Below are positions 8,838 to 60,129 of a stretch of DNA of 64,000 bases, piece after piece (position 1 is the stretch's first letter; each line of letters starts with the position of its first letter). The stretch spans positions 1,856,001 through 1,920,000 of the forward strand of contig CAXXDV010000001.1 in NCBI GenBank assembly GCA_963674745.2, written 5' to 3'. The DNA is from Desulfosudaceae bacterium (GTDB lineage: Bacteria; Desulfobacterota; Desulfobacteria; Desulfobacterales; Desulfosudaceae). The translations under genes and the position numbers were made by a program. The notes below the pieces were generated by a model that saw only the letters and a program-made list of their open reading frames with translations, searched no databases and had not been told where the DNA came from.

Positions 8838-8863
8838 TTCACGCTGTAACGTGAGGACTTGAA

Positions 8864-15372: not shown

Positions 15373-17865
15373 GTGAGTCGTATCGCGTCAGCCATGCCCC
15401 AGGAAGGCATGCAACCATCTGCCTTTGAGGACCGGCCCCCCAGACCCCTTCCCGGTGAGATGTCAGACTATTGCCGCTTTTTCGATGTTTTTCCTCAGTC
15501 GTCGGAATCGTATATTGAAAACCTTCCCTTTGCCCCGGGCGATACAACCGCCGGAACGGAAAATGAACTTCAGTCGGCCGTCATCGGGCAGGCGGCTGAT
15601 GTCGATCTTGCTCAGGTGATCGCCACATCCAATTATTTGAAGAATATTCGGAAAAGAACACTGGCCGGCGAAACACCCCGGCAAATGGCACCGGATCTGG
15701 AAAATTTTATCGCTGACAATCCGACCAATATCTGGGAGAACAGCTGGGTACGTTTTCCCAGAAGCGTCCTGAACGACAGTGCCCGTGAAGTTTTAAACCA
15801 TGACCTTCTGGCGGATAAGCAGCAGCCGCAAGGCCCTATGCGGAAAGACGTCCATAAATTCAATATTGTTCAGGACGGACGGGAAATGCTTCGGCTGCCG
15901 GTCAGCTATCTGCTTAAGCTTTCCCTGGCCCAGGCCATGGGAGAGTTACCGCCTGAAGCGACACCCTTAAGAAAGATGGGGCTGCAATTGATGTCTCATT
16001 TTTCAAATGACAACACCTCGCCTGAGACATGTTCTTTTTACACGCCCCGTTTGGTGAAAACCCGTGACGGCATGGGCCGATCCATCGCAGCCGAAACCAG
16101 CCTGCGTTATTTGGTCTGCCAGGTACTGATTCAATACGCCAATCATTGTTTTGCCCTGTGCACACACGGCCAGGAAGCGTCTCTTTACATGGCACCCAAT
16201 CCGCCAATCCGTCAGAAAAAGCTGAATGACTTGATTTCGGACGCCTTTTACAGGGAGTTGTTCATGAGCCCCTGCCTTTCAGGATGGGATCGGGGGGAAG
16301 ACAAACATCACTACATGGGGCTTTGCCACCAGGTTTTGTCCCGCAGTCAACTCAACGCCGTCGCGAAACTCAAGGAAGCCCAGATTATCAACAACAACCT
16401 GGTTGTCCTGCCAAACACGTCTAACGTCAGCCTGGCCAACAACGGAACCCATTTAAGCCTCGGCAGTCTGAAGTTGAGCGCTTTGCTGGAAGATTCCAAA
16501 TCAGGTTTCGGGCCGGCCGATGAAAAAAACATGGGCGACCTGGTCATCAAAATATGTGAGCATTTTCTGCCCCTGTTCGTGGGAACATACAGCGCGGCCC
16601 CGTACCGAATCGATTTTACAGATTTTCATCCGGAAAGAGTGCTCGGATATCTTCCCCATGAACTGGATTTTACTCACCTGCGTATGATCTGGCGAAGATG
16701 GAAGAAAAAAGCCCGCCTCAAAATTTTAGGGCGGGCCTGTACCCCTTTCGGTCCTTATCCGGTTGATCGTTTTCTGCAGCGCTGCTTTCGGCTGAAGGGT
16801 GATTTTGTGCCGGACTTCAGACTGCTGGATTATCTCATCTGTCTGAAAAGCACAGAGGAAAGCGCCGCCCTGGACGGAATCCTTGACAATGATCTGCGAC
16901 TCAAACGGGATTTAAGCGATCTTGGCGTTTTTGACGAGCGGATGAGTTTGTATTTGCTTTATAAACAGCGGCAATCCCATGTCATGGGTTTTTCCGGTTT
17001 TGAAGGACGCTATTACAGTCAGTTTGAAAGTCTTAACACAGACTTGAGCCGTGCGGCCGGTCTCCAGACCCTGATCACCGTCTTTGCCTGCAAAAGCATC
17101 CTGAACGGCAGCCTGTCCCACAAGGATATTCCCAGTGATTCCTTTACGGAAAGTGAACGCAGACAGATATTTTTCGCGACCGCAATCGGCTTGCCGACTT
17201 TTTATGTCAACAAGAAAACAAAAAACCGGTTCCTTTTGAGAGTTTTGCGTTCGGTCAAAGATATGCGTTTCAGCCGACGTTATCCCGGTTATCTGCGTGT
17301 TCCCAACACATCGTTTCACCAGGCACTGATTCGCATGTTGACCGATGAGGCCGCTGATCTGATCGAATTGATGGGCCTTGAAGATACCATCGAAGACTTG
17401 AGGAAACGGATCCGGTTTCCGGAACAGCGATCGGTTGCCGGCAGATTAACTGCCGCCATACTGGATAAAGCCGGTGCTCAAAGCCCCATGGATCTGGACA
17501 GCAACGAATTTGCCGGTGCCGCCGAAAATTATTATCGTGATGATTTGCGCCTCAAGCACATGACCGAGGCCATGGATTTTCTGGCGCAGGAGATGAATAT
17601 TATCGACGGAAAAACCATACTGAACAGAGGCCGGTATCGTGAAATCCTCAGATCCGTCCTGCAGGACAAGGATGCCTCCCGCTTCGTATCGGCAGTCAAA
17701 GACGATATCCTGAGAGGCACTGCATCGGTAAGCGTACTGGAGCGTTTCCTGGCGCTTTGTGTAATGATTATGGGTATGAAAATACCGCTATATAGAAAGC
17801 TTTTCGATGAACCGAATGAAAATGACGGGGAACGGATTGTTTCCTCACCAGTTTGTGTGTCGTGA
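15373..17865 (+). CDS. Large hypothetical protein with carboxylate-amine ligase (GCS/YbdK/PafA-fold) motifs
   Basis: Ordered motifs AGTENE, NNGTHLS, FLPLF..SAAPY and FEGR. Start codon uncertain. Confidence 0.6.
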   Translation: MSRIASAMPQEGMQPSAFEDRPPRPLPGEMSDYCRFFDVFPQSSESYIENLPFAPGDTTAGTENELQSAVIGQAADVDLAQVIATSNYLKNIRKRTLAGETPRQMAPDLENFIADNPTNIWENSWVRFPRSVLNDSAREVLNHDLLADKQQPQGPMRKDVHKFNIVQDGREMLRLPVSYLLKLSLAQAMGELPPEATPLRKMGLQLMSHFSNDNTSPETCSFYTPRLVKTRDGMGRSIAAETSLRYLVCQVLIQYANHCFALCTHGQEASLYMAPNPPIRQKKLNDLISDAFYRELFMSPCLSGWDRGEDKHHYMGLCHQVLSRSQLNAVAKLKEAQIINNNLVVLPNTSNVSLANNGTHLSLGSLKLSALLEDSKSGFGPADEKNMGDLVIKICEHFLPLFVGTYSAAPYRIDFTDFHPERVLGYLPHELDFTHLRMIWRRWKKKARLKILGRACTPFGPYPVDRFLQRCFRLKGDFVPDFRLLDYLICLKSTEESAALDGILDNDLRLKRDLSDLGVFDERMSLYLLYKQRQSHVMGFSGFEGRYYSQFESLNTDLSRAAGLQTLITVFACKSILNGSLSHKDIPSDSFTESERRQIFFATAIGLPTFYVNKKTKNRFLLRVLRSVKDMRFSRRYPGYLRVPNTSFHQALIRMLTDEAADLIELMGLEDTIEDLRKRIRFPEQRSVAGRLTAAILDKAGAQSPMDLDSNEFAGAAENYYRDDLRLKHMTEAMDFLAQEMNIIDGKTILNRGRYREILRSVLQDKDASRFVSAVKDDILRGTASVSVLERFLALCVMIMGMKIPLYRKLFDEPNENDGERIVSSPVCVS

Positions 17866-18880
17866 CACAGGCGCGGTGGAAACCGAGGTGCTGGTCGGTG
17901 ACCTGGCCGTTCTGGGGTTATATCACCTGGCCCGTGAGCGGGCCGGGTGGCTGTTTAACGCCGTCACCAGTGCCCATGTCAGTTCCGCTCTGGGGTTTTG
18001 CTGTTATGACCGGCCTTTTTTCAACATACATGCGGCTGTGAAAAGACTGTCAATCAAAATGGGTGTTGACCTCGAGGAATGCCTGGATCCGCCGTCGGCT
18101 TATTCCAGCGCCAGAAAATTTTTTGAAAGAAAAATCAAATACTGGCAATATCGCCCCATGCCCGATGAGAGAGCGGCAATCGTATCCCCGGCCGATGCCC
18201 GGGTTATCGTCGGCGCTCTGGAAGAAACGCCCGCCCTGTTTCTCAAACAGTCCTTTTTTACCTTCGAAGCGCTGCTGGGCAGCGATAAGCCCGAGTGGCT
18301 GAGGGCCTTTGACGGCGGGGACTATGCCGTCTTCCGCCTGACCCCGGACAAGTATCATTATAACCATGTACCGGTCTCCGGAATGGTCAGAGATATTTAT
18401 GTCATCGACGGTGTTTACCATTCATGCAATCCGGGTGCGGTTATCGTTGAAGCCACGCCTTATTCCAAAAACAGGCGCGTGGTCACGGTTCTGGATACGG
18501 ACGTGGCCGGCGGTACCGGAATCGGTCTGGTCGCCATGATCGAGGTCGCGGCCATGATGATCGGTGATATCGTTCAGTGTTACAGTGATCACCGTTACGA
18601 CAACCCTGAAGATGTGGTCCCGGGTATGTTCCTGAAAAAAGGGCAGCCCAAAAGCCTTTACCGGCCCGGCAGTTCTACGGACATCCTCCTTTTCCAGAAA
18701 GGCGAAATGCGATTCAGCGATGACCTGGTGGAAAATACGTCACGGTCGGATGTGAAAAGCCGTTTTTCCGAAGGATTGGGGCGCCCACTGGTGGAAACCG
18801 AAGTGCGCGTCAGGGAACAGATCGGCTGTGCCGGAAAAAAAGGTTTTGACAAAGATACTTCAATAACTCAAGGAAAATGA
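17807..18880 (+). CDS. Phosphatidylserine decarboxylase-like pyruvoyl enzyme
   Basis: FFERKIK, VSPADAR, RLTPDKYHYNHVP, NRRVV and the self-cleavage-like motif GSST. Confidence 0.85.
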   Translation: MNRMKMTGNGLFPHQFVCRDTGAVETEVLVGDLAVLGLYHLARERAGWLFNAVTSAHVSSALGFCCYDRPFFNIHAAVKRLSIKMGVDLEECLDPPSAYSSARKFFERKIKYWQYRPMPDERAAIVSPADARVIVGALEETPALFLKQSFFTFEALLGSDKPEWLRAFDGGDYAVFRLTPDKYHYNHVPVSGMVRDIYVIDGVYHSCNPGAVIVEATPYSKNRRVVTVLDTDVAGGTGIGLVAMIEVAAMMIGDIVQCYSDHRYDNPEDVVPGMFLKKGQPKSLYRPGSSTDILLFQKGEMRFSDDLVENTSRSDVKSRFSEGLGRPLVETEVRVREQIGCAGKKGFDKDTSITQGK

Positions 18881-18883
18881 AAA

Positions 18884-19930
18884 ATGGCATCTTATGTTTT
18901 TGTACTCTGCCTGGCAGTATTTCTGGTAATCATTCTGGCATGGGGTTTCAAGCATCTGCCTGACGCATGCTGGCAGTTCGTGGCGGCGGTCCCCAGGGGA
19001 AAGCTGCCGCAAGGCGGGTGGTCCGGGGCGAATTTTACCTATTATGGCCTGATCATTGCCTGTTCAACCGTATTTTCAATGGCACTGGCCATTTTTCTGC
19101 TGGGCGCCATTTCGTTACCGCTAAAGGCGTCGTTAACTGTGGCCGCAATCCTTATGGCTGTCTGTATTCCTGCTTCACGAATAGTGGCGGGAATTGTGGA
19201 AAAAAAACGTCACACTTTTACGGTGGGCGGCGCGCTTTTTCTCGGTATTCTGCTCATGCCCTGGGTGATTTATCTGGTCAAAAAAACGGGAACCGGCCAT
19301 TTCCAGATGGAAGTGCTGCCGGTTTGCGCGGCTCTGGCTATTGCCTACGGTTTTGGAGAGGGACTGGGGCGTCTGGCCTGCCTGAGTTTCGGCTGCTGTT
19401 ACGGGAAACCCATGTCCCAGGTACACCCATTGCTCCGGCGTGTTTTCGGCGGACATGGAACCATCTTTCACGGTGAAACAAAGAAGATCGCATATGCTTC
19501 CGGGCTGGAGGGCGAAAAAGTTTTTCCGGTTCAGGCCGTCACCACTACCCTTTACTGTGCCAGCGCCTTGATCAGCACCCTTTTGTTTCTAAAAGGGCAC
19601 TTTGCCGCGGCTCTGGTGCAGGTGCTTACTATTACACAGATCTGGCGGATTGTTTCTGAAACCCTTCGGCATGACTATCGAGGCGATGGGGAGATATCCG
19701 CTTATCAGATTATGATGATCATCACCCTTTTTTACAGCTTTAGTCTACCGTTTGCTTTCCCCATGTCAAACACCACTGCACCTTCCCTGGTTTCCGGCTG
19801 GCTGACAATCTGGTCTCCGGGTGTGATTCTGGCCCTCCAGGCCGTCTGGATGGTCATGTTTGTCTATTACGGCAAAAGCCGGGTTACCCGGGCGGTCATC
19901 GCTTTTAACGTGCAGCAGGACCGGATATGA
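18884..19930 (+). CDS. Prolipoprotein diacylglyceryl transferase (Lgt)-family membrane protein, divergent
   Basis: YYGL, GEGLGRLACLSFGCCYGKP and WRIVSETLRHD motifs; about 9 TMs. Confidence 0.8.
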   Translation: MASYVFVLCLAVFLVIILAWGFKHLPDACWQFVAAVPRGKLPQGGWSGANFTYYGLIIACSTVFSMALAIFLLGAISLPLKASLTVAAILMAVCIPASRIVAGIVEKKRHTFTVGGALFLGILLMPWVIYLVKKTGTGHFQMEVLPVCAALAIAYGFGEGLGRLACLSFGCCYGKPMSQVHPLLRRVFGGHGTIFHGETKKIAYASGLEGEKVFPVQAVTTTLYCASALISTLLFLKGHFAAALVQVLTITQIWRIVSETLRHDYRGDGEISAYQIMMIITLFYSFSLPFAFPMSNTTAPSLVSGWLTIWSPGVILALQAVWMVMFVYYGKSRVTRAVIAFNVQQDRI

Positions 19931-47734: not shown

Positions 47735-48736
47735 ATGGTAGACTGCAAGACACTCACTATAATTGGATTACTAATCCTTGTTATCATCGTCGCGGTCTTT
47801 CTGGCAGGACCGAGGATAGAAATCAATACAACGGTTCACCCCGTCATAATTCCGACAGACCTTGAGGCGTATGTTGCAAATTCAGAGTCCGCTATTGATG
47901 ATATCGTTCCGGGAACAGAGAAAATTATAATTTGGGCCGGTGAAACCGGCGTCCAGACTCCATTATCAGTCGTATATCTGCATGGATTTTCAGCCTCACG
48001 TCAGGAAACAGCCCCTCTCTCCGAAATAGTAGCCTCAGATTTAGGCGCGAACCTGTTTTATACACGTTTCACCGGGCATGGCAGGAACGGTACCGCCATG
48101 TTGGAGGGCAGCGTTCATGCCTGGCTGAGCGACGCATATGAAGCGTTAGTTATAGGCCGCCGGTTGGGTAAAAAAGTTATTGTGATCGGAATGTCAACCG
48201 GTGGAACGGCTGCAACATGGCTGGCCACCAATGATTTTTCAGACACTGTAGCCGCCTTTGTATTAATCTCTCCCAACTTTGCTCTTACAGACAGTAGATC
48301 CCGCGTTTTGTCGTGGCCATGGGGCGGGTACCTGGCTGAATTGTTTATTGGCCCGGAACGCAGCTGGGATCCGGTTAACGATCGCCAGGGAAGATTCTGG
48401 ACGCATCGTTATCCGACACGGGCTTTACTGCCAATGATGGGAATGGTAGATCTGGCCAATTCATTGGACCTGTCAACGATTGACACCCCTTTTCTTATTA
48501 TTTATTCACCTGATGATCAGATTGTCAGCAGTAATTCAACAGAAGCGATGTATCAAAGAATCGGTACCAGGCAAAAACAATTGATTGCTTTTTCAAATGC
48601 AGAGGACCCGTCTCAACACGTTTTAGCCGGCGATATTTTGTCGCCAGGTTCAACAGAAGTGATTGCACGTGTGATTCTTAATTTTATTTGCCAATATAGT
48701 GATCCCCGGGGACAGAAAACGAATTCCGAGGAATAA
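47735..48736 (+). CDS. Membrane-anchored alpha/beta hydrolase (esterase/lysophospholipase-like)
   Basis: LHGF, GHG, GMSTG nucleophile elbow, DDQIV and QHVLAG motifs. Confidence 0.85.
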   Translation: MVDCKTLTIIGLLILVIIVAVFLAGPRIEINTTVHPVIIPTDLEAYVANSESAIDDIVPGTEKIIIWAGETGVQTPLSVVYLHGFSASRQETAPLSEIVASDLGANLFYTRFTGHGRNGTAMLEGSVHAWLSDAYEALVIGRRLGKKVIVIGMSTGGTAATWLATNDFSDTVAAFVLISPNFALTDSRSRVLSWPWGGYLAELFIGPERSWDPVNDRQGRFWTHRYPTRALLPMMGMVDLANSLDLSTIDTPFLIIYSPDDQIVSSNSTEAMYQRIGTRQKQLIAFSNAEDPSQHVLAGDILSPGSTEVIARVILNFICQYSDPRGQKTNSEE

Positions 48737-48766: not shown

Positions 48767-48805
48767 TTAACTAAAAATAAATCATTTCCTCAAAAATTCT
48801 TCATG
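48767..48805 (+). promoter_or_regulatory. Pho-box-like array upstream of the PHP-GT4 operon
   Basis: TTAACT, TAAATC, CTCAAA, TTCATG at an 11-bp period. Confidence 0.6.
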
Positions 48806-48862
48806 CAGCCGCTATAGAACAACTATTAAAAATGACGATAAATTTAATTGAGGAGCATGACC

Positions 48863-51316
48863 ATGTCATCCATGAAGGTTGATCTTCACGTCCATTCCAA
48901 GTTTTCCAAGCGGCCATCTTACTGGATCCTTCAGAAGCTGGGCTGTTCCGAGAGTTATGTGGAGCCGAAAGCGATTTATCGTATCGCCCGTGAAAAAGGC
49001 ATGCGGTTTGTAACCATCACCGATCATAACACCATTGCCGGCAGTCAGGAAATCGCGCACTTGCCGGACACCTTTATCAGTGAAGAGGTGACAACTTATT
49101 TTCCGGACAGCGGTTGCAAGGTCCATTTGCTCGCCCTTGATATTACCGAGATCCAGCATGAGGAAATATCGCGTTTAAGACCCAATATTTTTGACCTGGC
49201 CGCCTATTTGCAGAAACAACGGATTACGCATGTCGTTGCCCATCCTTTATTTGCTGTGAATGACCGCTTGACGCCGGAACATTTTGAACAGCTGCTGCTC
49301 ATGTTTACCAATTTCGAGTTAAACGGCACCAGGGATGCCTATCAAAATGATGTTCTGGTGAACATCCTGACGCGGCTAACGCCGGAAGATATGGCCCGAT
49401 TGGTCTGTAAGCACAATCTTTCCGCTTATGGCGAGACGCCCTGGAAAAAGAATTTTACCGGCGGTTCGGATGATCATTCCGGGTTTCACATTGCCCGGAC
49501 ATTTACGATGGTTGAAGAAGACGGGGATCTGGCTGATTTCCTGCGGGCGGTTAACAGCGGTCAGGCACTGGTCTGCAAAAACAATTATGAACCCAAAATG
49601 CTGGCCCACACCCTCTATTCCATCGCCTATCAGTTTTATAGCCGCAAATTCAATCTGGAGCGGATAAAACAAAAGGATGAGTTCATCGCCTTTGTTGATA
49701 ATACACTGAACCAGCACGGCAACGTCGATAGAGGCGCACTCACCAATAAGGAAGAAGAAACCGTATTTGATGACGCGCAAAACGATATGAACAACCCGGC
49801 CAGAACGATCTCCAATTTTTGCGAACAAACGGCCCGGGACGTACTGAAGGAATTCCCCGAGTTCAACCGGATGGTTCAGGGTAAAACGGTTACAACCGAC
49901 CAGCGGGTAAAACTGTGCTACAATTTTGTCGACCGGGCCGGTGATGCCATCCTGGCCCGTTTGTGCGGCACAACCATGAAACGGGTTTCAAGCGGCAACA
50001 TTTTCGATGTCTTTCAGATGATCGGGGCCGGCGGCGCCCTCTATGCCATGCTGGCGCCATATTTCATTTCCTACAGTGTTTTTACCAAGGACCGCCGTGT
50101 CTGCAAGACCATACATGAACAATTGCATCTGAAAAGGCCTAAAAAAGAACATCTGCGGGTGGGCCATTTTACCGATACATTACACGACATCAATGGTGTG
50201 GCCAGAACACTCCGGCAACAGGCCGAGATCGCCGCGCGCATGAATAAACACTTAACACTGATCACCTGCGGACCGGAAAATCGTCGATCGGGGTTTAAGA
50301 CTTTCTCACCCATTGACACCTTTGACATGCCCGAATACTCCGACCTGAAGCTTTATTACCCGCCCTTGCTCAAAATGACGGATTATTGCTATGAGCAAAA
50401 TTTCAATCGTATCCATATCGCCACACCCGGTCCGGTTGGCCTGGCTGCCCTGGCCATTGCCCATATTCTGCAATTGCCGGTCTTTGGTACCTATCACACG
50501 TCCCTGCCGCAATATGTCAGCCAGCTGACCGGCGACACCGGTCTGGAGGACCTGACCTGGAAATATATCATCTGGTTTTACAGCCGAATGGATGTTGTGT
50601 TTGTGCCCTCAAAGGCGACGGGTGATGAACTGATCGAGCACGGTATCAGCGCCGAAAAAATCAGATTTTATAATCGCGGCATTAACACCACGTTATTTCA
50701 TCCGTCCAAACGTAATGGTTTTTATAAAAAACAGTTTAACCTGGCCGACCAATCCTTGAAACTGCTTTACGTCGGTCGGGTTTCCAAAGAAAAAAATATG
50801 GATCATCTGGTTGACATAATGAAGCTCATTTCTCCTGATTTTCCCGATGTCAGCCTGGTGGTCGTCGGAGACGGTCCGTATCTGGAAGAAATGAAAGAGC
50901 AATGTCGACATCTGCCGGTATATTTTACCGGTTTTATGGAAGGGGAGGACTTGAGCGAAGCCTATGCCGGAAGCGATATTTTTGTTTTTCCTTCAACTAC
51001 CGACACCTTTGGTAACGTGGTGCTGGAAGCCCAGGCCTCGGGCGTTCCGGTTATCGTCACCGACAAGGGCGGCCCCAGCGAAAATCTGCTGCCCGATAAA
51101 ACCGGGTTTATTGTTCCCGGGGGCGATATTCGGGCCTTTGTCGAGAAAATCTCGCTGTTGCTGAAAGACCCCGCCCTGATGGCGACGATGAAACAGAACG
51201 CCAGGGCCTATATGAAACCCCGATCATTCGATTCGGCTTTTTCACAACAATGGGATTTATATCATGATCCGCTGACGCCGCCGGAAAATTCCCCTTCAAT
51301 GGTTTCCTCGAATTAA
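48863..51316 (+). CDS. PHP phosphoesterase domain / GT4 glycosyltransferase fusion (paralog 1)
   Basis: DLHVHS, TDHN, AHP, ELNG, GGSDDH; then NGVA, YHT, YVGRVSKEK and DTFGNVVLEAQASG. Confidence 0.9.
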   Translation: MSSMKVDLHVHSKFSKRPSYWILQKLGCSESYVEPKAIYRIAREKGMRFVTITDHNTIAGSQEIAHLPDTFISEEVTTYFPDSGCKVHLLALDITEIQHEEISRLRPNIFDLAAYLQKQRITHVVAHPLFAVNDRLTPEHFEQLLLMFTNFELNGTRDAYQNDVLVNILTRLTPEDMARLVCKHNLSAYGETPWKKNFTGGSDDHSGFHIARTFTMVEEDGDLADFLRAVNSGQALVCKNNYEPKMLAHTLYSIAYQFYSRKFNLERIKQKDEFIAFVDNTLNQHGNVDRGALTNKEEETVFDDAQNDMNNPARTISNFCEQTARDVLKEFPEFNRMVQGKTVTTDQRVKLCYNFVDRAGDAILARLCGTTMKRVSSGNIFDVFQMIGAGGALYAMLAPYFISYSVFTKDRRVCKTIHEQLHLKRPKKEHLRVGHFTDTLHDINGVARTLRQQAEIAARMNKHLTLITCGPENRRSGFKTFSPIDTFDMPEYSDLKLYYPPLLKMTDYCYEQNFNRIHIATPGPVGLAALAIAHILQLPVFGTYHTSLPQYVSQLTGDTGLEDLTWKYIIWFYSRMDVVFVPSKATGDELIEHGISAEKIRFYNRGINTTLFHPSKRNGFYKKQFNLADQSLKLLYVGRVSKEKNMDHLVDIMKLISPDFPDVSLVVVGDGPYLEEMKEQCRHLPVYFTGFMEGEDLSEAYAGSDIFVFPSTTDTFGNVVLEAQASGVPVIVTDKGGPSENLLPDKTGFIVPGGDIRAFVEKISLLLKDPALMATMKQNARAYMKPRSFDSAFSQQWDLYHDPLTPPENSPSMVSSN

Positions 51317-51336
51317 CTTTTATATCAGGTGATATC

Positions 51337-52686
51337 ATGGAACAAATACTTACGATTCCTCAAATAAGAAATAATCATCGCCGTTCACACGCATCGGCGT
51401 CTTTGTTAACAAAGGCGCTGCCGACGCTGTTAAGGCAACGACTTCCCGGCCAGGTGATTATTCAAATCACCGACCGTTGCAATGCCTGTTGTCCTCATTG
51501 CGGTATGCGTGTGACCAATTCGTTTTCCCGGACCAGCCTTTCCAACGACAACATTTTCCGTGTCATCGATGCGGCCGCGGCCAACGGCGCGGCGGCCGTT
51601 TCTTTTACCGGTGGTGAACCCATGCTGCGGCTGAATGACCTGGTTCAAGTGATCAACCACGCTGGCGCAGCGGGTATCCGCCTGATCCGCACCGGCACCA
51701 ACGGTTATTTCATGCAGATGAGCGGCACTGACAAAACAGCCTTGAAGTCAAAGGTATCATCCATTGTCGAAAAGCTGGCTGCTACCAGCCTTCGCAACTT
51801 CTGGATCAGCATGGACTCCAGTGTGCCGGAAGTTCATGACCGTATGCGGGGTTTTGATGGCCTGGCCCGCGGTATTGAAGCAGCGCTTCCGGTTTTTCAT
51901 GAACACGGGATCTATCCGGCCGTGAACCTGGGGGTTAACCGCAATGTTGGTGGAAATTTTACAGCCGAGATCGATTTTCGCCATTTTATACTCAGAAAAG
52001 ACTATCTAAGAGAATTCTATCGTAGATACAAGATCGCCATCGAAGGGTTCTATCGGCGGGTAATCGATATGGGGTTTACCATGTTGAACACATGTTATCC
52101 CATGAGTGTTGAATCCTGTGCAAGAGAAGGTTTGAGTGCCGTCTACGCGGCCACCGCCGCCGATCGGATCGTGTCTTTTGATCGGGACGAAAAAGCCCTC
52201 CTTTTTAAAATCCTGCTGGAGTGTGTGGAAAAGTTCCGCCATCAGATTCGTGTTTTTTCACCCCGGGTTTCCCTGTACACGCTTTATCGTTACTACTCGG
52301 AAAATGAATCACCCGGATTTACACCGGCCGGATGCCGTGGCGGCCTTGATTTTTTCTTCATTGACGCCAAAAACGGCGACACCTACCCCTGCGGTTACAG
52401 AGGGTCGGAAAGTATGGGCAAGTTCTGGGAGCTGAACATGCGACGGCTCAACAAACCCGCCCTTTGCCGGCGGTGCGACTGGGAGTGTTTCCGGGACCCG
52501 TCAGAACAGTTCGCACCGTTGCTGCAGGCTGTTTCCTCACCCGGGCGGGTTGCTTACCGGGCCCTGGCCGACCGGACATACACCCGACTGTGGCTGAAAG
52601 ATCTGGCCTATTACCGGGCCTGTGATTTCTTTGACGGCCGTCAGCCGCCGCGTTTTGAAAGGATGTCGCGACCAAAGGCAGCTTAA
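51337..52686 (+). CDS. Radical SAM protein with a C-terminal SPASM/twitch-like Cys cluster
   Basis: CNACCPHC, FTGGEP, TGTNG and GCRGG..YPCG..CRRCDWEC motifs. Confidence 0.9.
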   Translation: MEQILTIPQIRNNHRRSHASASLLTKALPTLLRQRLPGQVIIQITDRCNACCPHCGMRVTNSFSRTSLSNDNIFRVIDAAAANGAAAVSFTGGEPMLRLNDLVQVINHAGAAGIRLIRTGTNGYFMQMSGTDKTALKSKVSSIVEKLAATSLRNFWISMDSSVPEVHDRMRGFDGLARGIEAALPVFHEHGIYPAVNLGVNRNVGGNFTAEIDFRHFILRKDYLREFYRRYKIAIEGFYRRVIDMGFTMLNTCYPMSVESCAREGLSAVYAATAADRIVSFDRDEKALLFKILLECVEKFRHQIRVFSPRVSLYTLYRYYSENESPGFTPAGCRGGLDFFFIDAKNGDTYPCGYRGSESMGKFWELNMRRLNKPALCRRCDWECFRDPSEQFAPLLQAVSSPGRVAYRALADRTYTRLWLKDLAYYRACDFFDGRQPPRFERMSRPKAA

Positions 52687-52697
52687 GGGCAGATGAC

Positions 52698-53924
52698 ATG
52701 AATGAATTCTCGTTAAGAGAGAATATTATCATCAGCTACAGGACCTATTTCCATCTTTTCAAACGGACTTTTTTTGCATGTCGGAAAACCCAGGCCAGAT
52801 TAACTTTTCGGCGTTTTTTGACCATGATGTTTTTTTCCCCGGCCCTGCTGGCGCTGCAGACCGTCCACTGGCTCTTCTATATTGCGGACGATTTGTTTTT
52901 CCCCGGCTATCGAACTGTAGATATTGAACAACCGCTGTTTGTGGTCGGCGTACCCCGCAGCGGAACGACATTTCTTCACCGTTTTCTGTCACAGGACAAG
53001 GAACGGTTTATCACCTTTTCCATGTGGGAATTGATTTTTGCGCCTACCATAACACAACGCCGACTGATTCTTTTTTTTTCTGCTATGGACCGGCTGGCCG
53101 GGGAGCCGCTGGGGCGCATGCTTAAAGGACTTGAGCGGCTTATTTTCGGCAGTCTGGATGATATCCACAAGATTTCACTGTCTGAACCGGAAGAAGATTA
53201 CTTCGCACTGGCGCCGATTTATGCCTGCTTCCTGATGATTCTTCCCTTTCCTTTTCCGGAAGAACTGGGACATCTGGCCTATTTTGATGACCAGACACCG
53301 GAATCAGACAAAGCGCGTATTTTTGCTTTTTACAAGACCTGCCTGCAGCGACATCTGTACGTTTGGGGCACGGATAAAATTCTGCTGTCCAAAAATGTTT
53401 CGTTTTCGCCGATGATAGAAACACTTAACCGGTTTTTCCCGGAATGCAAAATCATCGGTACTGTTCGGGATCCTCTGCTGGCCGTACCTTCCCATATCAG
53501 TTCGATGATGGCGGGGGCCGCGATTTTTGACAATGACATACAGGGGGAAACGTTTCGGGACCAGATGATGGAAATACAGGCTTATGCCTTTTCGCGAGTG
53601 GGAAAATTTCTGCCCGGTTTACCCGAAAGCAGACAGGTCACCGTAAAAATGGAAGACTTAAAGGCCGAACTGTATCCAACCATCCGAAACATTTATGACC
53701 GGCTGGATTACAAAATGTCCCCTGATTTTGAGTTCTATCTGAGATGCCAGGACCGTGAACAGAAACGATATCAAAGTCGTCATAACTATGACCTGACATC
53801 GTTTAATCTTTCAGCGGAGGTTATTTACCGGAAATTCGCAGATGTTTATCGACGTTACGGTTATCCAAAAGCCGCTGCGACCGGTTCGGAAAATATTCAG
53901 GGAGCTCCAGTTGCAGAAAACTGA
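52698..53924 (+). CDS. PAPS-dependent sulfotransferase family protein with N-terminal hydrophobic segment
   Basis: 5'-PSB GVPRSGTT, EPEED, LSKN and 3'-PB VRDP..AVPS motifs. Confidence 0.88.
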   Translation: MNEFSLRENIIISYRTYFHLFKRTFFACRKTQARLTFRRFLTMMFFSPALLALQTVHWLFYIADDLFFPGYRTVDIEQPLFVVGVPRSGTTFLHRFLSQDKERFITFSMWELIFAPTITQRRLILFFSAMDRLAGEPLGRMLKGLERLIFGSLDDIHKISLSEPEEDYFALAPIYACFLMILPFPFPEELGHLAYFDDQTPESDKARIFAFYKTCLQRHLYVWGTDKILLSKNVSFSPMIETLNRFFPECKIIGTVRDPLLAVPSHISSMMAGAAIFDNDIQGETFRDQMMEIQAYAFSRVGKFLPGLPESRQVTVKMEDLKAELYPTIRNIYDRLDYKMSPDFEFYLRCQDREQKRYQSRHNYDLTSFNLSAEVIYRKFADVYRRYGYPKAAATGSENIQGAPVAEN

Positions 53925-54663
53925 TATTTCAAACACCCGGAAACTTTCAGCGATTGTTTCCATACATGATGTCATGCCCCGGACGCTGACCAGGGTGCTT
54001 GAGTTGGTGTCGTTTCTCGAAGAACGGGGCATCAACCGCTTTTCTCTGCTGGTTGTGCCGGGAAAAACATGGTCGCCCCGGAAAATTGAAGTATTGAATA
54101 CACTGCACAACCAGGGAAAAGAAATTGTGGGTCATGGTTGGCGTCACCGGGTTTATCGCGTGAACAACCTTCGGCACCGGCTGCACGGAAAAATAATCTC
54201 CAGGGATGAGGCTGAACATTTATCTCTATCAGAGAGGGAGATCTCCGGTATCATCAACCGTTGTTTCAAATGGTTTGGGGGCGTCAGTATAACTGCCCCC
54301 CGTGTATATGTTCCACCAGCCTGGGCCATGGGTGACATTTCCAGAAAAACCCTGCGGGCATTGCCGTTTGAACTATATGAAACCCAGTGCGGCCTCTATC
54401 ACGCAAGAACCTTACGGTTCGTTCCGATGCCGGTCATCGGATACATGGCGGATACCCCGACCCGGGTACGGTTAATTAAATGGACCAACACGGTGAACCT
54501 GCGAATCCCGCTGTCGCCGACCCGGATCGCCATCCATCCAGACGATCTGTATTTGCCCCTGGTGAATGATCTTGAGACGCACTTGGGCTTTTTCAGGAAA
54601 TTTATAACCTACAATGATTTATTTGAACGGGCGCCAGACGGGGACCCGGCCGCCAATCAATGA
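53911..54663 (+). CDS. Polysaccharide-deacetylase-like protein (DUF2334 type)
   Basis: SIHDV, GHGWRH, VPPAW and IAIHPDD motifs. TTG 53911 follows GGGAG. Confidence 0.82.
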   Translation: MQKTDISNTRKLSAIVSIHDVMPRTLTRVLELVSFLEERGINRFSLLVVPGKTWSPRKIEVLNTLHNQGKEIVGHGWRHRVYRVNNLRHRLHGKIISRDEAEHLSLSEREISGIINRCFKWFGGVSITAPRVYVPPAWAMGDISRKTLRALPFELYETQCGLYHARTLRFVPMPVIGYMADTPTRVRLIKWTNTVNLRIPLSPTRIAIHPDDLYLPLVNDLETHLGFFRKFITYNDLFERAPDGDPAANQ

Positions 54664-54676
54664 AAGGTAGGGACCA

Positions 54677-57130
54677 GTGATTACCAAGGAAGAAAACCAG
54701 AAACAAAATCAAGGGCTTTTCAGGGAAAAGGCATCAACATTTTTTAAGGTGGATATGCATGTTCACTCCTGTTATTCACAACGTCCTTCATCATGGATTC
54801 TGAAGCAAATCGGCTGCGCCGAAAGCTATACCGAGCCTCTTTATCTATATCAAACACTAAGACAACGCGGTATGGACGGCGTGACCATTACCGATCACAA
54901 TACCATTGAGGGATGCCTGGAAATCGCCCACCTTGAAAATGTATTTATCAGCGAGGAAGTGACTACATATTTTCCGGACAACTGCAAGGTTCACGTACTG
55001 GTTTATGACATCTCCGAAAGTCAGCATGCCGAAATCGCGCGGCTTAGAAAAAACATATTTGAACTGGTCGCATATCTGAACGGGGAAGACATTATTCATG
55101 GGGTAGCGCATCCCATGTTCAGCGTCAACGGTCGGTTACAGATGGCGCATATTGATCAGCTTTTACTGCTGTTTAAGATCTTTGAGCTGAATGGTGCCAG
55201 AAGCAGCCAGCAGAACGCGGTCATTAGCCGGATAGCCGGTATGTTGACCAAAGAAAGAATCAACATTCTGGCCGACAAATATCATCTGACGCCTCGGGGC
55301 AAGCGCCCCTGGGAGAAAATCCTTATCAGCGGGTCCGATGACCATTCTTCTTTGTATATGGGAATGTCATATACACAAAGCCGGCAGGCAGATTCGACGG
55401 AAACCTTTCTGGATAACGTCCGTTTCGGCCGGGTTGACTTGCAAACCCATGATGCTCGCCCGGAAACACTGGCTCAGAATATCTACAGCATTATGTACCA
55501 GTTTTACAATAAAAGATTCCAAATTAATCGCTGGATAGATGACAAAGCCCTGACGTCTTTTCTCAACAACTGCCTTTGTACGCAAAGTGATGAACAGGAG
55601 TCCGAAACAGCGTCAGCAACATTTGAAACAAATGGAAATCTGGGCCGTTTTACAGGAGGCACAATTCCTCAACGGTTTCTAACTAATGCCAGAAACATTA
55701 TATTTTCCGACCCCGAACTGCGGAATATTGTCTCCCAGTGGCCTTCTGAAAAAATAAAAGATGGTGCCTGGTGGCGGTTCGTAAACCGGCTTTCCGGGAT
55801 TATCATGCATGAGTTTGCCGATGAAATCCTGAATAGAATAAGTGATGCCGATATCCTTTACCTGTTCTCCGCAATCAGTTCCTCCGCATCCCTGTATATG
55901 ATGTTATCTCCGTATTTCATCTCTTATTCCCTGTTTGCCAGAGACCGCGCTTTCGGTCAGGACTGCCTGAAAAGACATGACGGGCAAACATCCGAGCTCA
56001 AGATCGGTACACACCGTGTGGCCATGTTTACCGACACCTTCAATGAAATCAATGGTGTTGCCGTGGCCATTCAGTCCCTGGTTGAAGGTGCCCGTTTGAC
56101 AGGCAAAGACCTGACGCTGATCACCTGCGATTCAGGGCAAAAACAACCTCCAGGCGTCAGGACTTTCGAGCCCATCGGCAAGTATGATCTGCCCGAGTAC
56201 CCTGAGCTGAAAGTTTATTATCCGCCTTTTCTGGAAATATTATCTTACTGTTATCATCAGGGATTCACTCGAATCCATGCAGAAACGCCGGGGGCCATGG
56301 GCTTGACGGCCATGGCGGTTGCACATTTATTGAATCTTCCCTTTTACGGAACATACCACACGGCTTTGCCGCAGACGGTTATGGCTTTGACCGGCGATTC
56401 TAAAATTGAGGATCTTTTCTGGAAGTATGTCCTCTGGTTCTATGGGCGCATGGAAAAAATATTTGTTCCTTCGGCCATGACAGCCAAAGAATTGATCGAC
56501 AAAGGAATTCCCGCGGAAAAAATTATTGTTCATCAATGGGGGGTGGATACAACTTTTTTTCACCCGGATAAACGAAACGGTTTTTACGCCAGCCGGTATC
56601 AAATAAATGACGCCACAATTAAACTGCTTTATGTGGGCCGTGTTTCCCCTGAAAAGAACCTTGCGGTTTTTGTGCCTGTTATGCGGAAAATTCTTCAAGT
56701 CAGAAGTGATGTCTGCCTGGTGGTGGTGGGCGATGGGCCCTACCTTCAGGAAATGAAGCAATCCACGAAGGGCATGCCGGTGATTTTCACCGGTTATCTG
56801 TCGGGGGAAATGCTGACCCAGGCATATGCATCAAGTGATCTGTTTGTTTTTCCTTCCACTGTAGACACAATGGGCAACGTGGTTGTCGAAGCACAATCAG
56901 CCGGTGTTCCGGTTATTGTCACCGACAAGGGCGGGCCTTGTGAAAACATGATCGATGGAAAAACAGGACTGGTGGTAAGCGCTAATGAGGATTTGCCGGA
57001 CCGCTTTGCAGCGGCCATCATGGAATTGTGTGATGATCCGGCCTTAAGAAAAACAATGCAGCATAATGCACGCGAATATGCCATGCAGCGCTCCATCCAA
57101 AAGACATTCCTCTCTTTCTGGGGCCACTAA
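54677..57130 (+). CDS. PHP phosphoesterase domain / GT4 glycosyltransferase fusion (paralog 2)
   Basis: DMHVHS, TDHN, SGSDDH; then NGVA, YVGRVSPEK and DTMGNVVVEAQSAG. Confidence 0.9.
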   Translation: MITKEENQKQNQGLFREKASTFFKVDMHVHSCYSQRPSSWILKQIGCAESYTEPLYLYQTLRQRGMDGVTITDHNTIEGCLEIAHLENVFISEEVTTYFPDNCKVHVLVYDISESQHAEIARLRKNIFELVAYLNGEDIIHGVAHPMFSVNGRLQMAHIDQLLLLFKIFELNGARSSQQNAVISRIAGMLTKERINILADKYHLTPRGKRPWEKILISGSDDHSSLYMGMSYTQSRQADSTETFLDNVRFGRVDLQTHDARPETLAQNIYSIMYQFYNKRFQINRWIDDKALTSFLNNCLCTQSDEQESETASATFETNGNLGRFTGGTIPQRFLTNARNIIFSDPELRNIVSQWPSEKIKDGAWWRFVNRLSGIIMHEFADEILNRISDADILYLFSAISSSASLYMMLSPYFISYSLFARDRAFGQDCLKRHDGQTSELKIGTHRVAMFTDTFNEINGVAVAIQSLVEGARLTGKDLTLITCDSGQKQPPGVRTFEPIGKYDLPEYPELKVYYPPFLEILSYCYHQGFTRIHAETPGAMGLTAMAVAHLLNLPFYGTYHTALPQTVMALTGDSKIEDLFWKYVLWFYGRMEKIFVPSAMTAKELIDKGIPAEKIIVHQWGVDTTFFHPDKRNGFYASRYQINDATIKLLYVGRVSPEKNLAVFVPVMRKILQVRSDVCLVVVGDGPYLQEMKQSTKGMPVIFTGYLSGEMLTQAYASSDLFVFPSTVDTMGNVVVEAQSAGVPVIVTDKGGPCENMIDGKTGLVVSANEDLPDRFAAAIMELCDDPALRKTMQHNAREYAMQRSIQKTFLSFWGH

Positions 57131-57582
57131 CCTCCCCAGATCCAACCGAATTGAAATCCGGCCAATGTAACTAACAACGACCATAAAAATGCACTGAAAA
57201 CATTCAAGAGAAAAAAACGAACGGGCTTTATTCCGGCCGCCCCGATGATAATCGGTGTTACGGCACGAAAGCCATAGACGAATCGGAAACACAAAATGAC
57301 AAGTGTCTGATGTTTTTGAAATATTGAAAAAACTTTTACCGCTTTTTTTTCAAATGACGGGCTGCGTTTCAACAGGCTGATACCGTATGTTTTGCCCGCA
57401 AAAAAGAAAATCTGATCGCCGCAGACGCTTCCGATCAAGGCTGAAATGATTACCCCGGGCAATGATAAATATCCGGCGCCGGCAAGAATCGCTGCGGAAG
57501 TCAAAATCACTTCTCCTTCGAAAATGGTCCCGATGGCAATGGCAATGTAGCCATAACTGTTAATCAGCTCTGCCGTAGACAA
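57127..57582 (-). CDS. DedA family membrane protein (short C-terminus)
   Basis: FEGE, GDQIFFFAG and FRFVYGFR motifs. TTG 57582 follows GAGG. Confidence 0.85.
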   Translation of the reverse strand: MSTAELINSYGYIAIAIGTIFEGEVILTSAAILAGAGYLSLPGVIISALIGSVCGDQIFFFAGKTYGISLLKRSPSFEKKAVKVFSIFQKHQTLVILCFRFVYGFRAVTPIIIGAAGIKPVRFFLLNVFSAFLWSLLVTLAGFQFGWIWGG

Positions 57583-57778
57583 GCGAACCTCAACTGTTTT
57601 GGTTTGAAGGTAAAAACAATAATCCTGTAAAATCATCCGTTTTGTTTGTTTGTCTGATATTTGCAGTTTGTCAGGAACACGTTATTTTTGAAGAAAATTT
57701 TGAGCGGTCAGTATGTCTCTGAGGCAACGTCTATGCTGTATCCAGGGGAATGTATTCGTTTATGAAACACAACTAATC

Positions 57779-57849
57779 CTAACATAAGTCTAACAAAACC
57801 CATCGTTGTCTTAACCAAAAAATAATCTTTTGGTCAAAATATCCTAACA
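57779..57849 (+). promoter_or_regulatory. Extended Pho-box-like array upstream of the second TonB operon
   Basis: CTAACA at 57779 and 57790; then TTAACC 57811, ATAATC 57822, GTCAAA 57833, CTAACA 57844 (11-bp period). Confidence 0.7.
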
Positions 57850-57963
57850 AGCCTCCAGTAATTTTTTCCCATAATTTTGAAGGACGGAAAATAATTTTCG
57901 TTCCAGCAAATTGATAATAATGAAAGCAAACTTTACCAGAATGAAAGGGAGGAAAGGAAAATC

Positions 57964-60129
57964 ATGAAAAAAACCCCTAACTTTTTAACAGTTCTTCGTT
58001 ATGCGAGCCTTTTGGCAATGGTCACGCTCGGACTGTTGGCGATCATCGCTTCCGGCGGTGGCGGCGGTGGCGGCAGCAGCAGTGAAAATAACAACAACAA
58101 TGGTAACGGCGATACCACGTCGACCCTGGCCGGTGATATCACCACCGACAAGACGCTGACAGCCGACACGGTATGGTATCTTGACGGCCTGGTGGCTGTC
58201 AAAAACGGCGCTGTCCTGACCATTCAAGCCGGCACAACGATTGTTGGTAAAAGCGGTACCGGCGCCAACACCAGTTACCTTGTCATCGACAAGGGATCGC
58301 AGATCATCGCAAACGGTACAGCCGCCAAACCCATTATTTTTACCTCGGAAACCGCTTATAACGGCGGCGCCGAAGCTCCCGGCCAGTGGGGCGGCCTGAC
58401 AATCATCGGCAATGCGGCTGATGTGGGCGTTGTCGCCGGCAACGAACAGGTTGGTCCTTACGAGTGCAATGCTGAATTTGTGCCCGGCAGTACCGACGCC
58501 AACGACAACTCCGGTACGCTGCGTTATGTGCAGATACTGAACTCCGGTATCACCATGGAACAGGACAAGGAAATCAACGGCCTTTCAATGGTCGGCGTTG
58601 GCCGCGGCACCACGGTTGAAAACGTAAGTGTCATCCGCAGCGATGACGACTGTATCGAACTCTGGGGCGGGACGGTGGACCTGACCGATTGTTATGTCGA
58701 GTACTGTACGGACGACCAGTTTGACATTGATGACGGGTACTCCGGAACGGTCACCAACCTGACCATCAATCAACACACCGACGGCAATGCCGGAATTGAA
58801 ATGTCCGGCTCAACTGCAGCCACTTTTATCGGTTTAACCCTCACACAGAACTACTCTGATAAAGAAGGTGCCATTTTCTTTAAGAAGGACGGTATCGGCG
58901 GTAACTTCATCGATTGTCAGATCACCGACAATGTTGACGACGGCCTGACGATCTTCTCACAGGGCGATGCGGACGAGGACAATATCTCCTTTACCAATGT
59001 GGCCATTACCAGCCCGGACACCATGACCAACTTCACCGATGACCCGGATGACGGCGGCAGCTCCGCGGATATTGAAGCCATTTTTGATGCCGGTGTCGGC
59101 AATACCGAAACCAGCAACCGCGCCATGCAGACCCTGGCCGGCGATATCACCACCGACATGACACTGACGTCCGACACGGTCTGGATGCTGGACGGCCTGG
59201 TGGCCGTGAAAAACGGTGCCGTGCTGACCATTCAACCCGGAACGACGATCATCGGCAAAAGCGGCACCGGCGCCAACACCAGTTACCTGGTTGTTGACAA
59301 GGATGCCCAGATTATGGCCAATGGTACCGCCGCCAAACCCATCATCTTCACCTCCGAGATCGCTTACAACGGCGGCGCCGCAGCACCCGGCCAGTGGGGT
59401 GGATTGACGATTATCGGCAACGCGGCTGATGTGGGTGTTGCCCCGGGCAACGAGCAGGTCGGTCCCTACGAATGTAATGCCGAGTTTGTGCCCGGCAATA
59501 CCGATGCCAACGACAATTCGGGTACGCTTCGTTATGTTCAGATTCTGAATTCCGGTATCACCATGGAGCAGGACAAGGAGATCAACGGCCTGTCCATGGT
59601 CGGTGTCGGCAGGGGCACAACAGTCGATCACGTTTCCGTCATCCGCAGCGATGACGACTGTATTGAACTCTGGGGCGGGACGGTGGACCTGACCGATTGT
59701 TATGTCGAGTACTGTACGGACGACCAGTTTGACATTGACGACGGGTACTCCGGAACGGTCACCAACCTGACCATCAACCAGCATACCGACGGTAATGCCG
59801 GTATCGAGATGTCCGGTACCACTGCGGCGACTTTCAACGGGTTAACGCTCACCCAGAATTATTCCGATAAGGAAGGGGCCATCTTCTTCAAGAAGGACGG
59901 TATCGGCGGTAACTTCAACAATTGTCAGATCATCGATAATGTCGATGACGGCCAGACAATTTTCTCCCAGGGCGATGCCGATGAGGCCAACATTTCCTTT
60001 ACCAATGTGGCCATCACCAGCCCGGACACGGATACGAACTTTGTCGATGACCCGGATGACGGCGGCAGCGCGGCAGATATCGAGGCTGCATTTGACGCCG
60101 GCGCCGGCAACACTGAAACTGAAAACTAA
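57964..60129 (+). CDS. Secreted, highly acidic, probable beta-helix protein made of two near-identical ~336-aa halves
   Basis: Signal peptide, Gly/Asn linker, and twice PIIFTS, PGQWGGL, DNSGTLRYV, EINGL, DDCIELWGG, DDQFDID. Confidence 0.85.
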   Translation: MKKTPNFLTVLRYASLLAMVTLGLLAIIASGGGGGGGSSSENNNNNGNGDTTSTLAGDITTDKTLTADTVWYLDGLVAVKNGAVLTIQAGTTIVGKSGTGANTSYLVIDKGSQIIANGTAAKPIIFTSETAYNGGAEAPGQWGGLTIIGNAADVGVVAGNEQVGPYECNAEFVPGSTDANDNSGTLRYVQILNSGITMEQDKEINGLSMVGVGRGTTVENVSVIRSDDDCIELWGGTVDLTDCYVEYCTDDQFDIDDGYSGTVTNLTINQHTDGNAGIEMSGSTAATFIGLTLTQNYSDKEGAIFFKKDGIGGNFIDCQITDNVDDGLTIFSQGDADEDNISFTNVAITSPDTMTNFTDDPDDGGSSADIEAIFDAGVGNTETSNRAMQTLAGDITTDMTLTSDTVWMLDGLVAVKNGAVLTIQPGTTIIGKSGTGANTSYLVVDKDAQIMANGTAAKPIIFTSEIAYNGGAAAPGQWGGLTIIGNAADVGVAPGNEQVGPYECNAEFVPGNTDANDNSGTLRYVQILNSGITMEQDKEINGLSMVGVGRGTTVDHVSVIRSDDDCIELWGGTVDLTDCYVEYCTDDQFDIDDGYSGTVTNLTINQHTDGNAGIEMSGTTAATFNGLTLTQNYSDKEGAIFFKKDGIGGNFNNCQIIDNVDDGQTIFSQGDADEANISFTNVAITSPDTDTNFVDDPDDGGSAADIEAAFDAGAGNTETEN
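58123..60120 (+). repeat. Intragenic direct repeat with a 1008-bp period
   Basis: Units start accctggccgg at 58123 and 59131; long near-identical stretches. Confidence 0.92.

Follow-up and report, generated by a model that had tools for sequence, protein, structure and literature searches.

A Pho-linked five-gene operon in a Desulfosudaceae bacterium reads as two joined lipid modules, one predicted to yield a sulfated amino-sugar glycerolipid

The window analysed here is a 64,000-nucleotide stretch of a Desulfosudaceae bacterium genome (GenBank assembly GCA_963674745.2, contig CAXXDV010000001.1, positions 1,856,001 to 1,920,000 of the forward strand). Behind a Pho-box-like array it carries an operon encoding a fusion of a PHP domain with a family 4 glycosyltransferase (PHP-GT4 A), a radical S-adenosylmethionine (SAM) protein, a sulfotransferase, a deacetylase and a second PHP-GT4 fusion (B) (Table 1). 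The preliminary description had listed five co-oriented, tightly spaced genes, a four-unit Pho-box-like array ahead of them, and a flanking esterase and DedA gene. All are real: a check of the open reading frames (ORFs) gives successive gaps of 20 and 11 nt, an overlap and a gap of 13 nt, the first base of the array is 48767, both flanking genes are present, and Pfam and NCBIfam place GT4 domains in both large proteins and Radical_SAM, Sulfotransfer_3 and DUF2334 domains in the other three. The ORF of A opens at TTG 48848, with a probable start at ATG 48863 preceded by GAGGAG, and the probable TTG start of the deacetylase (53911) overlaps the stop of the upstream sulfotransferase gene. A and B, 46% identical, are the only two PHP-GT4 fusions in the source genome. 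Comparison with related loci suggests that the operon is two transcription units joined, and does not support one linear pathway. Module 1 (A and the radical SAM protein) very probably belongs to a known phospholipid-replacing glycolipid system, and module 2 (sulfotransferase, deacetylase and B) is predicted, with a probability of about 0.5, to make a phosphorus-free sulfated amino-sugar (glucosaminyl) glycerolipid.

Table 1. Operon features and flanking genes, in window coordinates.
Feature	Coordinates	Strand	Remarks
Pho-box-like array, four units, 11-bp period	48767..48810	+	Sole such array found before the operon
PHP-GT4 fusion A (module 1), predicted Agt/Dde_3613-type Glc/GlcA-diacylglycerol synthase	48863..51316	+	Intact N-terminal PHP metallophosphatase domain, helical linker
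Radical SAM protein, uncharacterised family (module 1)	51337..52686	+	Auxiliary-cluster cysteines; closest solved structure BlsE
Sulfotransfer_3-family sulfotransferase (module 2)	52698..53924	+	5'-PSB and 3'-PB motifs intact
DUF2334 / GpgD-like deacetylase (module 2)	53911..54663	+	Metal and catalytic motifs intact
PHP-GT4 fusion B (module 2)	54677..57130	+	Own clade; altered GT4 site; PHP ligands intact
DedA/VTT protein, convergent	57127..57636	-	Candidate flippase, loosely associated; Pfam
Alpha/beta hydrolase (esterase), upstream neighbour	47735..48736	+	N-terminal hydrophobic segment; Pfam

The synteny survey that the preliminary description had called for bore out the linkage within each module and did not bear out the five genes as one unit. 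Across a single set of 251 genomes from the order, PHP-GT4 was found in 84 and the radical SAM protein in 66; 22 had the sulfotransferase (E<=1e-25) and 11 had the deacetylase. The radical SAM gene accompanies PHP-GT4 in 63 of its 66 genomes and lies within 4 kb of it in 48; 21 of the 84 PHP-GT4 genomes do without it, so it is dispensable for the glycosyltransferase there. The deacetylase gene lies within about 1.5 kb of the sulfotransferase gene in 11/11 genomes; six of these have B next, and five have a single-domain GT4 between sulfotransferase and deacetylase. The uninterrupted five-gene order was seen in the window only, although locus L027 keeps it with a DedA gene inserted; in genomes G006 and G009 the modules lie about 9 kb apart.

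Metagenomes were scanned with the deacetylase alignment, and the loci described are the best 80 of 386 confirmed, several of them near-duplicates. Where at least 2.6 kb of upstream sequence was available (n=41), a sulfotransferase was present in 41/41 and a single-domain GT4 lay between it and the deacetylase in 40/41; across all 80 cassette loci (GC 28-73%) a radical SAM gene occurs in 0/80 and a PHP domain in 4/80. Locus L117 carries a third GT4 type in this cassette. Relatives of the deacetylase number 2636 at E<=1e-30 among 8000 candidates scored, with names that include Gammaproteobacteria and Wenzhouxiangellaceae. No other neighbour recurs in more than 8/58 loci once shadow frames are set aside, and no polysaccharide export, Wzx/Wzy/ABC export or lipopolysaccharide (LPS) gene recurs beside the cassette. 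A metagenome scan by sulfotransferase alone gave no match, a plasmid search returned 23 records, all with distant sulfotransferases only, and a phylum sample of 301 genomes held three distant DUF2334 proteins with no sulfotransferase within about 1.5 kb, a flank short for a firm control. The cassette is widespread and apparently undescribed; a literature search, which left subscription journals mostly outside its reach, found no description of it or of a sulfated amino-sugar lipid.

Because the metagenome loci pair a sulfotransferase and a single-domain GT4 with the deacetylase, sulfotransferase-GT4-deacetylase is, on this evidence, the ancestral cassette. The sulfotransferase tree, which excludes eight loci as duplicates or near-duplicates, indicates that B displaced the single-domain GT4 in this lineage in one event, since the B-type sulfotransferases nest inside the single-GT4 type as one clade (FastTree 98/99) and a search for the single-domain GT4 found none in 5/5 B-type genomes. 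In locus L060 (4621-6404) an A-like PHP-GT4, disrupted by an internal deletion and a shift of frame, lies downstream of a complete single-GT4 cassette. Several apparent variants were set aside: the 719-aa sulfotransferase-GT4 fusion of L050 is an artefact with its parts in different frames, the 1349-aa frame over PHP-GT4 and the radical SAM gene in L140 is a shadow frame and no fusion, and the 590-670-aa PHP proteins considered as a second architecture were, in those examined, truncated or frameshifted PHP-GT4.

The operon sits in a phosphate-starvation island, with the pst-phoU-phoB-phoR operon at the left edge of the window. Scored with a pstS-type matrix trained on the source genome's two pstS promoters only, its array exceeds chance, though by itself only modestly, since it reaches p=0.010 against 300 dinucleotide shuffles yet ranks just 129 among the 4778 upstream regions of the genome. 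By sequence it resembles a PhoB-regulon site, its 11-bp-period repeats being like those before pstS. The region upstream of the window sulfotransferase ranks 4553/4778, so that two units have seemingly been placed under one box. Among relatives, Pho-box-like arrays precede 8/15 A orthologs (p<=0.05), 1/6 methyltransferase-led A loci and the sulfotransferase in 6/7 B-type split loci, and in the split loci each module has its own array. E. coli-type Pho boxes precede the sulfotransferase in 10/41 metagenome loci, and the pstS-type matrix matches 2/41. Taken together, the island and the conserved arrays support the Pho control that had been proposed for the operon. A scan for sigma-70 promoters and terminators stayed at chance level (18 vs 15.1 and 12 vs 12.6).

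A resembles the Agt/GTcp glycolipid synthases in its GT4 GT-B fold, its His104-Asp256 dyad and its GRVxxEKN and FPSxTDTFG motifs (34/34 A-type loci). All 13 mapped Agt/GTcp catalytic positions are kept in the window protein, and 11 of the 13 are invariant across the 34 A-type loci, the others being a Gly that is gapped in one row and a Trp kept in 32/34. Equivalents of Arg163, His104, Asp256 and Phe258 occur in 34/34; at the diacylglycerol (DAG) site, the equivalents kept are Arg163 (34/34) and Trp320 (32/34, by an approximate mapping). The AlphaFold model is confident across domains (pLDDT 86, pTM 0.84) and compatible with a rigid PHP-linker-GT unit; fold searches with the whole model gave GT-B matches only among the matches listed, and the top folds for the GT4 domain include sucrose-phosphate synthase, BshA and MshA. 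Glucuronosyl glycerols have been reported from a Desulfobacterales bacterium under phosphorus limitation (PMC11181052). Mutation of the listed residues inactivates GTcp (PMC8231724), and a Dde_3613 mutant of Desulfovibrio alaskensis lacks monoglycosyl diacylglycerol (MGDG) and glycuronic acid diacylglycerol (GADG) under phosphorus limitation (PMC5193443).

The PHP domain retains the ligand set HxH, DH, E, H, H, DxH, with 12 putative positions invariant in 30/30 rows, 6 of them B-type. It matches the CehA/McbA model in 18/18 members, below cut-off, and gives weak matches to PDB 3e0f (E 0.29) and to 3',5'-bisphosphate nucleotidases (12/18 members, best E 5e-4); its relatives, in the cases examined, proved to be PHP-GT4 fusions, whole or as broken copies. 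Neither A nor B has a Pfam match to a Metallophos (calcineurin-like, PlcP-type) domain, and TIGR01854, a proxy for PlcP/LpxH-like proteins, has no match in the source genome (G000), though plcP may still be present. We infer DAG release as the task of the PHP domain. As PHP enzymes are mostly monoesterases, phosphatidate phosphatase activity, for which the chances are slightly short of even, is no less probable than phospholipase C activity, a more doubtful prospect. In the Desulfobaccales/Syntrophobacteraceae loci L001-L017 and L020 (about 7600-9000), a Methyltransf_24 protein stands before PHP-GT4 in 18/18 loci, usually with a phosphatidylserine (PS)-decarboxylase-like gene (15) and with no radical SAM gene following PHP-GT4, possibly another phosphorus-free aminolipid route.

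The radical SAM protein carries CxxxCxxC, GGE and seven further invariant cysteines. Its top match is BlsE (PDB 7vob; profile E 5e-11, Foldseek E 1e-11), with Z 22.5, rmsd 3.5 and 295 aligned residues by VIA against Z 20.3 for the next folds. The identity is only 17-18%, the score against TIGR04466 (BlsE) is 40.7 bits for a cut-off of 400, and language-model neighbours include HpnH-like proteins. BlsE is a cytosylglucuronate decarboxylase, its substrate a glucuronide (PMC3715490), and we tentatively suggest a radical modification of the glucuronic acid (GlcA) or glucose (Glc) head.

Elsewhere, in L039 (6521-9918), the radical SAM gene lies directly 3' of an OlsF-like ornithine lipid synthase gene (400 bits vs a cut-off of 620). 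The window also holds, at 15373-19930 (+), a trio of genes, one for an 830-aa protein that Pfam does not recognise and the others for proteins like PS decarboxylase and Lgt. The motifs of the 830-aa protein resemble those of the glutamate-cysteine ligase fold, for which PDB and Pfam gave no support. Its gene occurs in 71/251 genomes, often near the PHP-GT4/radical SAM pair. As a partner for the radical SAM protein the trio was rejected in favour of A, with which the link is stronger (63/66 genomes, 48 of them within 4 kb, against 48/66 and 6 for the trio). For decarboxylated gamma-Glu-Cys the cation is calculated at 205.0641, which matches the BACys head fragment at m/z 205.064 (PMC11181052).

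In module 2 the catalytic motifs of the sulfotransferase and deacetylase are conserved, whereas the GT4 site of B has been remodelled. The sulfotransferase scores 79.5 bits against Pfam Sulfotransfer_3 (cut-off 27), its Arg87, Thr90, Arg257 and Ser265 are invariant in 51/51 aligned cassette sulfotransferases, and an adenosine 5'-phosphosulfate (APS) kinase is present in the source genome and in 5/5 other cassette genomes tested. The deacetylase has GpgD (NF053788) as its sole NCBIfam match, at 61 bits against a cut-off of 280, with motifs kept. B forms its own clade (SH-aLRT 100 in a quick tree with 2 partial rows dropped) and always follows the sulfotransferase-deacetylase pair. In this clade the Arg163 equivalent is Trp in 6 members and Ala in 2 (n=8), the Phe258 equivalent is Met in 8/8 and HIAT has become HAET; all PHP metal ligands remain. 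Because this active site differs in 8/8 members, B probably switched donor or acceptor, and because its PHP domain is intact, DAG is slightly favoured over A's product as the acceptor. The single-domain GT4s, about 22-24% identical to A, have Thr at the Arg163 equivalent in 38/38 and score 51-57 bits against the GpgS model. The strict pairing of deacetylase with sulfotransferase suggests that the freed amine either is required for sulfation or counterbalances it, with N-sulfation (an anion) and O-sulfation (a zwitterion) standing about even.

Outside the cassette, the only APS kinase of the source genome lies in a 581-aa fusion (G000:C3:258301-260046), alongside epimerases in a locus of polysaccharide type. 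Another sulfotransferase, distant at 33% identity (G000:C1:1000607-1001734, L059), stands beside an alpha/beta hydrolase and falls outside the cassette clade. A check of the genome for UDP-sulfoquinovose synthase (SqdB), of the sulfoquinovosyl diacylglycerol (SQDG) pathway, made with an N-terminal motif, matched no ORF, with 24 epimerase-family matches unclassified.

With donor, acceptor, sulfation site and product all predicted from sequence, the two modules might work as follows. The PHP domain of A would free DAG, as phosphatidate phosphatase or phospholipase C, standing in for PlcP, and its GT4 domain would add Glc or GlcA, by analogy with Agt and GTcp and, genetically, with Dde_3613. The radical SAM protein could then modify this sugar head in a BlsE-like manner, a weakly based step. 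B would transfer a different sugar, most likely N-acetylglucosamine (GlcNAc), to DAG or to A's glycolipid, and the GpgD-like enzyme would strip the N-acetyl group. The sulfotransferase would add sulfate from 3'-phosphoadenosine 5'-phosphosulfate (PAPS), either to the freed amine, giving an anionic sulfamate like phosphatidylglycerol (PG), or to a hydroxyl, giving a zwitterion like phosphatidylethanolamine (PE); the DedA protein perhaps flips the sulfated lipid. The deacetylated, sulfated glycolipid of the preliminary description thus survives as the best reading of module 2. Its proposed role as an anionic PG substitute would not hold for an O-sulfate on a free amino sugar, which would make a zwitterion, a substitute for PE.

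Several observations weigh against this assignment. The GT4 domains score 140 and 121 bits against GpgS (NF053787; cut-off 480), and the deacetylase is likewise far below its cut-off; it is accordingly the deacetylase, and not the transferases, that points to GlcNAc as donor. No Pho box was found upstream of 4/4 single-GT4 cassettes from this order, nor in 31/41 metagenome loci, a set that was scored with a hand-set matrix and contains several near-duplicates. The metagenome loci were themselves ranked by similarity to the window deacetylase. For module 1, the Agt residues were mapped by motifs and spacing from PMC8231724 rather than from the GTcp sequence, and Dde_3613 (D. alaskensis G20) is likened to A by annotation, unaligned, as a group I glycosyltransferase with a PHP N-terminal region (PMC5193443). 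Finally, two lipidomic studies of phosphorus-limited sulfate reducers report, in the text available, no sulfated amino-sugar lipid, the cassette content of those strains being unchecked.

The preliminary description had proposed a single pathway: a diglycosyl-DAG assembled by A and B together would undergo deacetylation, radical-SAM modification and O-sulfation. The single operon with its single array speaks for this, as do the PHP-GT4 genes in 10/11 cassette genomes of the order, the HexSD precedent for a HexN-Hex-DAG (as cited in PMC12713373) and the Arg lost in B, which binds DAG in docked GTcp and whose loss fits a different acceptor. We nevertheless consider it improbable: the radical SAM gene, missing from every one of the 80 cassette loci, was also not found in 3/11 cassette genomes, the modules are separately boxed units in relatives, most cassettes use an unrelated single-domain GT4, and the intact PHP ligands of B would be dispensable if B merely extended A's product. 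Equally improbable is a module 2 that decorates PG as GpgSD does, yielding a sulfated glucosaminyl (GlcN)-PG that tunes membrane charge and saves no phosphorus. GpgS and GpgD are indeed the best NCBIfam matches of the GT4 domains and deacetylase, but at scores far below cut-off, whereas Pho-box control and a fused, intact PHP phosphatase domain fit phosphorus removal, and the neighbours scanned included no recognisable GpgF-type flippase.

A non-glycerolipid envelope acceptor (LPS or lipid A, an undecaprenyl-linked or protein glycan, an ornithine lipid or a sphingolipid) is quite unlikely. Sequence cannot reveal GT4 donors or acceptors, the single-domain GT4 is only distantly related to A, and DedA proteins weakly match undecaprenyl-phosphate transporter models; yet no Wzx/Wzy/ABC export or LPS gene accompanies the cassette recurrently, and displacement of its transferase by an Agt paralog argues for a DAG-like acceptor. 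A soluble sulfated amino-sugar metabolite would make the PHP domain either a phosphatase acting after transfer to a phosphorylated acceptor, in the manner of synthase-phosphatase pairs, or a scavenger of 3'-phosphoadenosine 5'-phosphate (PAP) or uridine diphosphate (UDP). The sucrose-phosphate synthase, BshA and MshA folds and the bisphosphate nucleotidase matches lean that way, but the Dde_3613 phenotype is a lipid one, single-GT4 cassettes lack PHP, and PHP-GT4 occurs in 84 genomes against 11 with the cassette, so that PAP clearing is not the general role of PHP; we give this reading little credence. The sulfated amino-sugar glycerolipid remains our preferred product for module 2.

Of the flanking genes, the esterase is probably outside the pathway, because it has no match in related loci L001-L041 or L060-L139; its AT-rich array falls short of significance (p=0.32). 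A DedA gene lies beside or near the sulfotransferase in L027, L042, L043, L046, L068 and L071, and three sulfotransferase-VTT fusions occur among the 120 matches listed. Positions 1-38642 of the window hold, besides the pst operon, a PHO4 transporter, a PhoU-kinase/RimK/HprK/CofD/amphi-Trp cluster, two alkaline phosphatases, a phytase with a TonB-dependent receptor and Exb genes, a purple-acid-phosphatase-like gene and a second DedA gene. At 57770-60129 (+), ahead of DUF3450-ExbB-ExbB-ExbD, lies the gene for a 721-aa protein with a duplicated domain and no Pfam match, probably at the cell surface; it has a Pho-box-like array of its own (p=0.007, rank 16/4778), and L060 encodes, upstream of its cassette, a protein resembling this one as judged by eye. 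Leaving pstS aside, the strongest Pho-box-like array of the genome (rank 3/4778) precedes G000:C3:1186652-1187914 (-), the gene for an uncharacterised 420-aa protein, probably exported.

Bacteria that replace phospholipids by phosphorus-free lipids are already known, and module 1 very probably represents this system in sulfate reducers. What is new is a conserved sulfotransferase-GT4-deacetylase cassette predicting a sulfated amino-sugar lipid of calculable masses, searchable by environmental lipidomics, together with a PHP domain that may answer how DAG is supplied for Desulfobacterota glycolipids when the locus has no PlcP-type partner. For a 32:0 DAG core the computed [M-H]- values are 808.525 (HexN-SO3), 970.578 (HexN-Hex-SO3) and 984.557 (HexN-HexA-SO3), with 699.542 for the pentosyl-DAG expected of a BlsE-like decarboxylation by the radical SAM protein. 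A fragment at m/z 97 would be insufficient evidence of such a lipid, because HSO4- and H2PO4- are told apart only at high resolution and a sulfamate may lose mainly SO3. Comparing A with B, moreover, amounts to a natural experiment in how a GT4 changes donor and acceptor. A bolder version, which we regard as unlikely, is that the cassette modifies a membrane lipid much as heparan sulfate is modified, transferring GlcNAc and then N-deacetylating and N-sulfating it to give an N-sulfoglucosaminyl glycerolipid, here possibly on GlcA-DAG with an N-sulfoglucosamine (GlcNS)-GlcA head; the fused PHP domain would act as a novel DAG-releasing enzyme that channels its product to GT4. If true, this lipid would join SQDG and BACys as another 'sulfur for phosphorus' class, and a heparan-sulfate-like lipid cassette would have spread across unrelated aquatic bacteria.

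Among known systems, heparan sulfate N-deacetylase/N-sulfotransferase (NDST) couples deacetylation to sulfation, with a sulfotransferase of a different family and on a polymer; module 2 resembles it in chemistry. The sulfotransferase shares its PAPS motifs with mycobacterial Stf-type enzymes (PDB 2z6v and 2zq5; Stf9 and Stf1), in weak matches with E about 1e-5. Closer in logic to module 2 are GpgSDF and HexSDF: Pseudomonas aeruginosa GpgS and GpgD make GlcNAc-PG and then GlcN-PG (PMC12713373), and C. difficile HexSD makes aminohexosyl-hexosyl-diradylglycerol (as cited in PMC12713373). They share with module 2 a GT4 and a COG3233/DUF2334-type deacetylase for an amino-sugar lipid. Module 2 differs in its obligatory third gene, a sulfotransferase rather than the GpgF flippase, in its Pho linkage and in scores below the family cut-offs; by Pfam the window locus has no GpgF-type flippase gene and a DedA gene instead. 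BlsE, which acts on a glucuronide (PMC3715490), is the top match of the radical SAM protein, though the two are distant in sequence. Dde_3613 resembles A in annotated architecture and is required for MGDG and GADG under phosphorus limitation, with homologs in over 50 deltaproteobacterial genomes according to the same paper, whose main text has 0 occurrences of 'PHP' (PMC5193443); unlike A, its flanks (Dde_3610-3612 and 3615-3616) include, as named in the available text, no radical SAM gene. With Agt/GTcp and PlcP (PMC8231724), A shares the catalytic dyad, both UDP-sugar motifs, the Arg/Trp equivalents of the DAG site and the same DAG-to-glycolipid logic. The DAG-releasing partner of Agt/GTcp is a separate PlcP metallophosphoesterase, that of A would be a fused PHP domain, and in B the Arg163 and Phe258 equivalents are gone.

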